Of a DNA stretch of 45,628 bases, positions 7,432-8,269 are shown in pieces; the first letter of the stretch is position 1, and the number at the start of each line of letters is the position of its first letter. A program made the translations under genes and the position numbers. The stretch spans positions 1 through 45,628 of the forward strand of contig JAILRR010000056.1 of NCBI GenBank assembly GCA_024698065.1. Reading direction: 5' to 3'. The notes under the pieces are model-generated. The model was not told the DNA's origin and ran no database searches. It saw only the letters and a program-made list of their open reading frames with translations. This DNA is from Bacilli bacterium (GTDB taxonomy: Bacteria; Bacillota_I; Bacilli_A; RFN20; CAG-826).

Positions 7432-7665
7432 TTATTTGGCAAGCTTCTTTTCGATCGAAGCAAGAAGATCGCCGACGGTCTTGAACTCAGCGAGTTCTTC
7501 TGGGCTGAATTCGATGCCATACTTGTCTTCTAAATCAAGACACATCTCAACAACATCGAGACTATCGAGTCCGAAGTCTTTGAGGGATTTGGCCTCGTCG
7601 ATTTTTTCAACTTTCATTCTTTCGCAAAATAACTTGCGGATTTCAATCATTTGGTCTGCGCTCAT
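7432..7665 (-). CDS. Acyl carrier protein (apparently monocistronic)
   Basis: 77 aa, with the phosphopantetheine attachment motif GLDSLD. The ATG at 7665 lies 6 nt after GAGGTG. The track start at 7674 is GTG and sits inside that RBS. Confidence 0.85.
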   Translation of the reverse strand: MSADQMIEIRKLFCERMKVEKIDEAKSLKDFGLDSLDVVEMCLDLEDKYGIEFSPEELAEFKTVGDLLASIEKKLAK

Positions 7666-7688
7666 AAAATGCACCTCACAATGTGCCT

Positions 7689-7717
7689 ATTATATGTGGG
7701 AAAAAGTGTAGGCGCAA
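7689..7717 (-). promoter_or_regulatory. Candidate sigma-A promoter for the ACP gene
   Basis: On the minus strand: TTGCGC (7712..7717), a 17-nt spacer, then TATAAT (7689..7694). This lies about 20 nt upstream of the RBS. Confidence 0.45.
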
Positions 7718-7724
7718 GCGCTAC
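7701..7724 (-). terminator. Possible terminator at the end of the pilus operon
   Basis: Minus strand GTAGCGC-ttgc-GCCTAC hairpin with one bulge, followed by ACTTTTT. It overlaps the proposed -35 element. Confidence 0.35.
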
Positions 7725-7731
7725 CCCCTCT

Positions 7732-7911
7732 TTAGAGGGACACTACTGCATTCGGATTTGCATACTTGACGCTGCCATTTACTTCGACCGTGATGTTCTT
7801 GTTGACGGCTTCAGCACTGGCGGCGAAGGCTGGAATTAAGATTCCAAGAATCGTCCCAAAAGCGGCCAAAACAAGGATCATTCCGAGAAGCTGTCCTTTG
7901 AGTTCCGACAT
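7732..7911 (-). CDS. Small pilin-like protein (59 aa) with a class III (prepilin-type) signal; absent from the supplied ORF track
   Basis: My own translation of the minus strand gives MSELKGQLLGMILVLAAFGTILGILIPAFAASAEAVNKNITVEVNGSVKYANPNAVVSL. A strong RBS GGAGGTGG lies 5 nt upstream of the ATG. The short charged leader ends in KG and is followed by a hydrophobic stretch of about 25 aa. It is the last gene of the Tad-like operon. Confidence 0.7.
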   Translation of the reverse strand: MSELKGQLLGMILVLAAFGTILGILIPAFAASAEAVNKNITVEVNGSVKYANPNAVVSL

Positions 7912-7927
7912 AAATCCACCTCCTTTC

Positions 7928-8269
7928 TTATTCTAGGTAACCGACCATAACGCCTCTCATAACCTCGAGGCTCATCACCTCTTTTGAGATTATGATTGGC
8001 TCGTATTTGCGGGCGATGACGAATTCAAAGATGTCACCTATGACTGCGTATTCCTTACTGACCGGGTAAATGTAAGCCTGAGCTCTGTCAAAGACGTACC
8101 TTTTGGTTTTTTCGCTGATTCCGCCTTCTAGGGAAATAAGATGCCCCGCTGTCACGGAAACCGTGTCTAAAATGCTATAGATTTGCTGAATGACGGTAAG
8201 ATCCCCAACATAGGCCATGACCTGGACCGAGAAAAATAAAGACAAAAGAAAACCTAAACTAGATCCCAT
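7928..8269 (-). CDS. Membrane-anchored protein of unknown function (possible minor pilin or assembly factor)
   Basis: 113 aa counted from the ATG at 8269; the track start at 8275 is TTG. It has an N-terminal hydrophobic segment LGFLLSLFFSVQVMAYV and overlaps the end of the upstream gene by 11 nt. Confidence 0.6.
   Translation of the reverse strand: MGSSLGFLLSLFFSVQVMAYVGDLTVIQQIYSILDTVSVTAGHLISLEGGISEKTKRYVFDRAQAYIYPVSKEYAVIGDIFEFVIARKYEPIIISKEVMSLEVMRGVMVGYLE

Follow-up and report, generated by a model that had tools for sequence, protein, structure and literature searches.

The type IV filaments described so far share a core made up of an ATPase, a platform, a pilin as well as a class III signal peptidase, and processing of the prepilin by this peptidase is a prerequisite for assembly in all the filaments that have been studied (PMC10191384, PMC13705601). 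Two systems come closest to the locus described here: the Flp/Tad pili (type IVc) of Caulobacter and Aggregatibacter, Tad loci having also been described in Gram-positive bacteria (PMC3244431), and the Epd pili of Methanococcus maripaludis, archaeal type IV filament 'system 1' (PMC4371748, PMC6668835, PMC13705601). The combination of one ATPase with two half-size platform genes is a hallmark common to both, and Tad has been inferred to stem from an Epd-like archaeal system through ancient transfer (PMC6668835). Here we analyse an open reading frame (ORF) of 59 codons on the minus strand, at 7732..7911 of a 45,628-nucleotide stretch of DNA from a Bacilli bacterium of the RFN20 lineage (assembly GCA_024698065.1, contig JAILRR010000056.1; the whole stretch is referred to as the window). 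A previous sequence-only reading had regarded its product as a pilin with an archaeal-style class III signal.

Our findings point toward the idea that this small protein acts as the major, pilin-like building block of a Tad-like machine for type IV filaments that is specific to its lineage, and that it is most likely not cleaved by a class III peptidase, a reading to which we assign a probability of roughly 0.55. The role of major subunit is suggested by the position of the gene in its operon, the strength of its ribosome-binding site, the Flp-like size of the protein, the combination of an invariant N-terminal helix with a variable exposed tail, the occasional occurrence of tandem duplicates and the strict linkage to an ATPase gene. 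The absence of processing is suggested, in turn, by the lack of an A24 peptidase in the genomes and by the fact that the helix is no more invariant than the six 'leader' residues preceding it.

As in Flp/Tad systems, the subunit would be headless and within the range of about 50-60 residues, next to the gene of a small CpaF/TadA-type ATPase come, with the A-B-C order, two neighbouring genes for putative half-size platform proteins, and small N-terminally anchored proteins resembling the TadE/F accessory proteins are encoded, in what would be a monoderm version without secretin. Unlike in Tad, however, TadZ and RcpC are lacking, no TadV peptidase was found in the whole genome, the protein of the window shows neither the G-XXXX-EY motif nor Glu+5 nor an above-threshold match to the Pfam families Flp_Fap and TadE, its six-residue N-terminus is invariant family-wide, and the scores of the ATPase fall far short of the curated cut-offs for TadA and VirB11. 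With the Epd pili the locus shares the motif K-G/Q-[LIV] at the junction of leader and helix (the slash marks the archaeal cleavage site), a short headless major pilin, the two putative platform genes and a plausible role in adhesion; it differs from them in its bacterial host, in the absence of EppA or any other A24 peptidase and of a FlaH-like second ATPase, in the lack of Glu+5 and of a PF04021 match, and in a much shorter and invariant leader. The MSH pili of Proteobacteria are likewise encoded by a type IV filament locus without a peptidase gene of its own, but MSH genomes always carry a peptidase in another type IV pilus (T4P), type II secretion system or Tad locus (PMC6668835), whereas here none was found genome-wide, nor in nearly the whole family of organisms. 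Finally, short type IVa pilins such as Geobacter PilA-N are similar in length (about 60 residues) and can be aligned through G19, P27 and F29 with a profile of close relatives, although with E-values of 0.04 or worse; moreover, Gly occupies the place where Glu5 would be, and the machine is Tad-like and not PilB/PilC-like.

The small gene and its protein family

The ORF translates into MSELKGQLLGMILVLAAFGTILGILIPAFAASAEAVNKNITVEVNGSVKYANPNAVVSL, exactly as quoted before, and it is the eighth and last of a series of tightly packed minus-strand genes (Table 1). The pairing predicted between its Shine-Dalgarno sequence, AAAGGAGGTGG, and the anti-Shine-Dalgarno sequence reaches -17.6 kcal/mol, the top value among the eight genes of the operon and ahead of gene 2 (-16.3 kcal/mol), in agreement with the earlier claim that no other gene of the operon has a better ribosome-binding site. 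The motif AAGGAGG lies 5' of the equivalent ATG in all 50 homologous loci that were fetched. Close homologues (n=20, word-indexed search) are 46-92% identical to the protein, with near-identical N-termini and divergent tails. Across the 50 loci, pairwise differences per site in codons 1-10 amount to 0.21, 0.06 and 0.49 at codon positions 1, 2 and 3, respectively; Ser codons alternate between TCN and AGY among homologous loci, and the median ratio of nonsynonymous to synonymous substitution rates (dN/dS) is about 0.18 over 32 codons. In every syntenic locus inspected the small gene is the last one of the same operon, which settles in the affirmative a check proposed with the sequence-only reading, and the full operon is syntenic even where the small protein is only about 40-50% identical. 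Given these homologues, the shared AAGGAGG and ATG, the third-position variation and the conserved place in the operon, the 59-residue ORF is a genuine gene under selection. Additionally, small contigs from sheep-gut metatranscriptomes span 7699-7849 and, in a relative, 7822-7914, at a low depth that makes them weak evidence of transcription.

A profile search of 1.84 billion representative proteins retrieved 286 clusters (50% identity) at E<=0.001, with lengths of 46-135 residues, all of which align to the small-protein profile from residue 1. The N-terminal consensus, MSE[IL]KGQ[LI]LG, is near-invariant: in an alignment of 147 full-length members, M1, E3, K5 and F18 are found in all 147, G6 and F29 in 145, Q7 in 143, L9 in 142, and S2 and G10 in 139 each, while position 11, a Met in the protein of the window, is I, M, V or L in 146. 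Past F29 the tail has a mean length of 33 residues and is hypervariable, rich in Ser and Thr and net acidic (4.8 Asp plus Glu versus 2.7 Lys plus Arg). Since the N-terminus is invariant while the tail is variable, acidic and rich in Ser/Thr, an exposed major subunit would be in line with this pattern.

An aromatic residue is present within the last three positions of the protein in 84 of the 147 members, with endings such as ..LLTF, ..LHY and ..NLTF, and the final residue is exactly F or Y in 64; the aromatic ending may serve as a docking motif. The sub-clade of the window ends differently, in an alternating hydrophobic strand (..VVSL, ..VTL).

A class III signal (IPR012902) opens with a short hydrophilic leader whose last residue is Gly or Ala, and continues with 20-25 mainly hydrophobic residues (PMC10191384). 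This is the layout of the small protein, in which MSELKG precedes 23 mostly hydrophobic residues reaching F29 and a short polar tail, so the prepilin-like architecture had been correctly recognized. The PilFind rule, (A/G)X4(D/E), places an acidic residue at +5 (PMC3244431); here the corresponding stretch is G6-QLLG-M11, with Met, Ile or Val at +5 across the family, and both Glu+5 and G-XXXX-EY are lacking, as read directly from the sequence and as had been stated. EppA substrates of M. maripaludis, the Epd pilins EpdB-E, are cut at KG/QV, KG/QL and KG/QI and require Gln at +1 (PMC4371748, PMC4390842), which corroborates the earlier statement about them; they also have Glu+5 (PMC4371748). The Lys-Gly at -2/-1 and the Gln at +1 of these pilins have their counterparts in K5, G6 and Q7. 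The Pfam Class_IIIsignal family (PF04021, QxSxExxxL) does not match the ORF even at E<=10 in the search of its own genome, and Flp_Fap (PF04964) is not among the 25 most frequent of the 109 families listed for 150 members at E<=10. Therefore, the proposed archaeal-style signal is supported as regards KG/QL and the overall layout, and not supported as regards Glu+5, the PF04021 match and the A24 peptidase. The genomic context is that of a filament system as well: a T2SSE ATPase and a T2SSF-like platform are encoded in the same operon at all loci, and within the genus the presence or absence of the small gene tracks that of the ATPase.

Neither the ORF nor the 150 family members gave anything above threshold in Pfam or NCBIfam. 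The sub-threshold matches among the 150 members are scattered (DUF6112 in 13, archaeal Pilin_N in 7, TadE in 1, and LapA_dom), and therefore no family membership is claimed for the 59-residue protein. The small proteins form a previously unannotated family, which would represent a new group of small proteins at the surface of bacteria that are abundant in rumen and gut. One homologue (P0006) is labelled 'uncharacterized protein YggE' by its source, almost certainly a mis-annotation.

Prepilin peptidases and the fate of the N-terminus

A hidden Markov model (HMM) search detected no Peptidase_A24 in the genome of the window, nor in any of 36 other genomes of the genus, most of which are more than 90% complete. 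Among genomes that carry the small gene, the peptidase is absent from 101 of 107 in one taxonomic family (f1) and from about 116 of 127 in the order (~91%). Matches over the cut-off occur in 22 of 251 genomes of the order, 10 of them among the 127 with the small gene versus 12 among the 124 without it, i.e., with no association between the two. As a control, the same model gave matches in 12 of 14 genomes, including Escherichia coli, Bacillus subtilis, Caulobacter, Corynebacterium and all four archaeal ones, and it detected bacterial, TadV-type and archaeal enzymes. Of the A24 genes found in a search of 60 relatives, six lie 2-3 kb away from genes for PilB-type ATPases of 556-572 residues (Table 1), which assigns them to a classical T4P locus that is distinct from the Tad-like operon and has no relation to it. 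A motif scan of the ORFs of the window's genome yielded no candidate for a GxGD-type membrane protease either; the matches that arose were ruled out as antisense frames, ABC-permease-like paralogues, an OadB-like protein and a YitT-like protein.

Taking these results into account, we propose a machine with a single small CpaF/VirB11-type ATPase, a pair of paralogous platform proteins of one domain each, and two or three further proteins with an N-terminal anchor that would act as accessory proteins or minor pilins. The subunit would insert into the membrane in an N-in/C-out orientation, with residues 6-29 as the membrane helix and the acidic hypervariable tail outside, and the platform and ATPase would pull it from the membrane, stacking a thin Flp-like filament or a short pseudopilus that lacks a globular head. 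Class III cleavage would not take place, and processing would consist at most of Met removal. In addition to the peptidase search and the invariant N-terminus, two features of the neighbouring genes are consistent with an uncleaved subunit: homologues of gene 7, which encodes a candidate minor pilin, have Ser at the would-be -1 position, Gly or Ala being the last residue of class III leaders (PMC10191384), and the product of gene 3 starts without any leader.

The leader of ordinary prepilins is variable apart from the Gly at -1. An invariant E3 and K5, as read from the alignment, would thus be odd residues for a leader destined to be discarded, and they could instead take over the neutralisation of charge that falls to Glu5 and the new N-terminus in classical pilins, in which Glu5 and the N-terminal amine form a buried charge pairing (PMC10191384). 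Likewise, G6-xxx-G10 may provide tight helix packing in the filament core and not mark a cleavage site. A broader proposal would follow these lines: a lineage of wall-less rumen and gut Bacilli with reduced genomes, more than 100 of them sampled, would build a type IV filament without any prepilin peptidase, its subunits being made 'mature' and retaining S-E-[IL]-K-G-Q in place of the pairing between Glu5 and the N-terminal amine. We put this forward tentatively, at somewhat short of even odds. What makes it worth considering is that more than 100 genomes in which the prepilin peptidase, supposedly universal, is missing have a type IV filament operon that is conserved and under selection. This leads to a testable alternative: the mechanism does not require that the leader be removed, or else there is a prepilin peptidase of a second kind.

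Such a second enzyme is the basis of the rival explanation that fares best, although we consider it unlikely. According to it, the protein is a true class III prepilin of the EppA style, and an unrecognised non-A24 or very divergent peptidase cuts after Gly6 to give a pilin that starts with Gln1, possibly as pyroglutamate. The conservation of K5, G6 and Q7 at 97-100% speaks for it, KG/QL, KG/QI and KG/QV are the very sites of M. maripaludis EpdB-E, where Gln+1 is essential (PMC4371748, PMC4390842), the machine has two putative half-size platform genes, a hallmark of Epd and Tad (PMC6668835), and the best solved relatives of the ATPase are archaeal, by a small margin. On the other hand, A24 was found neither in the genus nor in most of the order with a model that detects the control enzymes, and no GxGD candidate appeared in the own genome; Glu+5 and a PF04021 match are lacking, the conservation of S2 (139/147), E3 and K5 is unexpected in a discarded leader, and in several lineages the putative minor pilin, encoded by gene 7, carries Ser at -1.

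It is also improbable, in our view, that the protein is a small single-pass membrane part of the ATPase/platform machine, such as an anchor, a stator or an assembly factor, that does not polymerise. Neither sequence nor profile comparisons gave an above-threshold match to a pilin family, no peptidase is present in the genome, and an invariant N-terminus is to be expected of a protein in contact with conserved motor parts; nevertheless, the hypervariable, acidic and Ser/Thr-rich tail and the tandem duplications better fit an exposed structural subunit, the strongest ribosome-binding site of the operon suggests a high stoichiometry, and the operon would otherwise be left without a candidate major subunit. 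Very improbable is a Sec-exported precursor in which residues 1-33 act as a signal peptide and signal peptidase I cuts at ASA/E, releasing a peptide of about 26 residues: A31-S32-A33/E34 is a textbook AXA site following the hydrophobic stretch in the protein of the window, and a small residue (A, T, S or G) occupies position 33 in 136 of 147 members, but position 31, the -3 position of the -3/-1 rule of signal peptidase I, is Asn or Lys in 65 of 147, which is poor for this enzyme, the hydrophobic stretch of about 23 residues has the length of a membrane anchor, the 'signal' is conserved and the 'product' hypervariable, contrary to a generic signal peptide, and the linkage of the gene to an operon for a type IV filament is strict. 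A leader of the double-glycine bacteriocin type was rejected too: the sequence contains no GG, and no C39 peptidase or ATP-binding cassette (ABC) exporter gene lies in or beside the operon.

Several observations weigh against a major pilin-like subunit that is used uncleaved. Filament and protein are known here from genes alone. An unprocessed pilin would be unprecedented, because all studied type IV filaments need processing (PMC10191384, PMC13705601), and the invariant K-G-Q-[LI] is the exact recognition tetrapeptide of EppA (PMC4371748), which hints at cleavage. The genome of the window is only 81% complete, many of its relatives being 95-99% complete. With regard to the machine, the T2SSF matches of genes 5 and 6 and their homologues span the full domain at E-values of 0.003-0.045, under the Pfam cut-off, and Foldseek found no significant match in the Protein Data Bank (PDB), or to any pilin, for the model of gene 7. 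Nor is homology of the small protein to type IVa pilins claimed: with the close-relative profile, these pilins made up 14 of the 19 PDB matches, with G19, P27 and F29 aligned to their G14, P22 and F24, at non-significant E-values of 0.04-2, and with the family-wide profile the similarity was gone.

Operon and neighbouring genes

The genes that precede the small gene in the operon are listed in Table 1 together with the other features mentioned in the text. In NCBIfam, the ATPase scores 113.6 bits with the TadA-family model TIGR03819 (equivalog cut-off 373) and 107 bits with VirB11, both far below the cut-offs, and its sequence thus points to TadA/CpaF at the level of the superfamily only. Its homologues are annotated as CpaF/VirB11 or TadA by their sources. 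The best PDB matches are the archaeal GspE (2oap), FlaI, VirB11 and CpaF, all at 49-57 bits; this nearly equal distance does not decide the ancestry of the enzyme.

An hhalign comparison identifies genes 5 and 6 as paralogues (probability 90%, E 1.6e-6). The AlphaFold2 model of gene 5, with a predicted local distance difference test score (pLDDT) of 86, gave target-normalised TM-scores of 0.54 to the PilC N-domain (2whn) and 0.57 to EpsF (3c1q); the Foldseek E-values for this model were not significant, and a TM-score above 0.5 was reached only by PilC and EpsF domains. Profile searches with genes 5 and 6 against PDB sequences returned no matches.

Gene 7 is conserved in 27 loci, and in several lineages its homologues have Ser at the would-be -1 position. 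The AlphaFold2 model consists of a helix at residues 2-48, a second helix at 53-63 and a three-stranded sheet, a lollipop-like architecture from whose topology alone the protein appears pilin-like, and hence a candidate minor pilin. The longest ORF starts at TTG 8275, while the conserved N-terminus of the 27 homologues matches the ATG at 8269 (MGSSLGFLLSLFF); since neither of these codons has a good ribosome-binding site, translational coupling of gene 7 to gene 6 is suggested. Pfam and NCBIfam scans of the operon found no ParA/MinD-like (TadZ) gene.

Table 1. Location of the operon genes, of associated elements and of the loci in related genomes mentioned in the text.
Feature	Location	Strand	Remarks
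Gene 1, ~117 aa	12077..12430	-	Basic, cytoplasmic; likely start ATG 12430; no Pfam/NCBIfam match
Gene 2, 378 aa	10980..12116	-	N-terminal signal or anchor and large external domain; no Pfam/NCBIfam match
Gene 3, 127 aa	10604..10987	-	Transmembrane helix from the very start and small external domain; no Pfam/NCBIfam match
Secretion ATPase, CpaF/TadA/VirB11 type, 320 aa	9645..10607	-	Pfam T2SSE 7e-21
Gene 5, putative TadB-like half-size platform protein, 232 aa	8950..9648	-	T2SSF E 0.045; 0.0029 in a homologue
Gene 6, putative TadC-like half-size platform protein, 229 aa	8259..8948	-	Paralogue of gene 5; T2SSF E 0.027 in a homologue
Gene 7, candidate minor pilin, 113 aa	7928..8269	-	N-terminus MGSSLG/FLLSLFF; AlphaFold2 mean pLDDT 90.6
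Shine-Dalgarno sequence of gene 8	7916..7926	-	4 nucleotides 5' of the ATG; strongest of the operon
Gene 8, pilin-like protein, 59 aa	7732..7911	-	MSELKG, then QLLG and hydrophobic helix to F29, then 30-residue polar tail
Small hairpin over the stop codon of gene 8, then CUUUUU	7720..7740	-	z = -1.9 for a 71-nucleotide stretch
Acyl carrier protein gene	7432-7674	-	Downstream neighbour
A24 peptidase with PilB-type ATPase	G049:C12:15913-19271; G039:C51; G048:C42; G054:C23; G040:C4; G038:C35		Six loci in relatives
Tandem duplicates of the small gene	G090:C3:114060-114418; G192:C20:1853-2208; G266:C28:16640-17013; G046:C166:5065-5394		Four loci
ComEC-like genes (examples)	G014:C7:45509-46198; G033:C3:164402-165091		Divergent

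The hairpin at the end of the operon could tentatively be taken as a weak terminator; the terminator scan made no call at this position. Downstream, the gene for acyl carrier protein lies 60-100 nucleotides past the small ORF in the loci inspected, and a divergent guanylate kinase gene is the upstream neighbour wherever the upstream flank was captured. The start of the acyl carrier protein is more likely ATG 7665, preceded by a GAGGTG ribosome-binding site, than GTG 7674.

Host lineage, distribution and possible function

Of the 36 other genomes sampled in the genus, 28 carry the small gene; it also occurs in 107 sampled genomes of family f1 and, within the order, in several families besides f1. 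Each genome of the genus has exactly one T2SSE ATPase gene, with the exception of the higher-quality genomes without the small gene, which lack the ATPase too (G004, G005, G010, G018 and G021). The small gene is usually single-copy, tandem duplicates being found in a few genomes.

The sequence-only reading had considered this bacterial locus as an intermediate form between archaeal Epd-like pili and Tad. The distribution of the family does not support this: in a class-wide sample of 301 genomes it was restricted to one order of Bacilli, and the lineage has small genomes without penicillin-binding protein (PBP) genes. A derived, lineage-specific variant fits this pattern better than an intermediate in evolution or a relic. 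Methanobrevibacter has been reported to carry 'system 1' Epd-like loci (PMC13705601), and a separate, recent transfer of the operon from rumen methanogens is possible.

PBP transpeptidases (PF00905) were found in none of the 19 genomes of the genus that were checked, i.e., the window's own (G000) and G001-G018; on this basis, the genus appears to be wall-less and Mollicutes-like. Several other families of the same order have two to four PF00905 genes. Mollicutes served as the filament-free negative set for PilFind (PMC3244431), and a literature search on the lineage name RFN20 and pili returned nothing; our results would now place a type IV filament machine in a wall-less lineage of this kind.

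Adhesion is the default role of Tad and Epd filaments, and it is probably also the function of this machine in the rumen and gut. DNA uptake is a further possibility, because ComEC is present without ComG/PilB-type systems: divergent ComEC-like genes, whose products have about 700 residues, are found in most genomes of the genus, and neither ComG/PilB-type systems nor ComC were found in them.

The records that match the family are metagenome-assembled genomes from rumen and gut, labelled as Bacilli, Erysipelotrichaceae, Mollicutes or Candidatus Enteromonas. A few 'cleanbin' records of this type that carry the operon (L035, L050, L054, L032 and L033) are titled Bacteroides uniformis, Parasutterella excrementihominis, Roseburia hominis, Bacteroidaceae and Hallerella, labels that look wrong.

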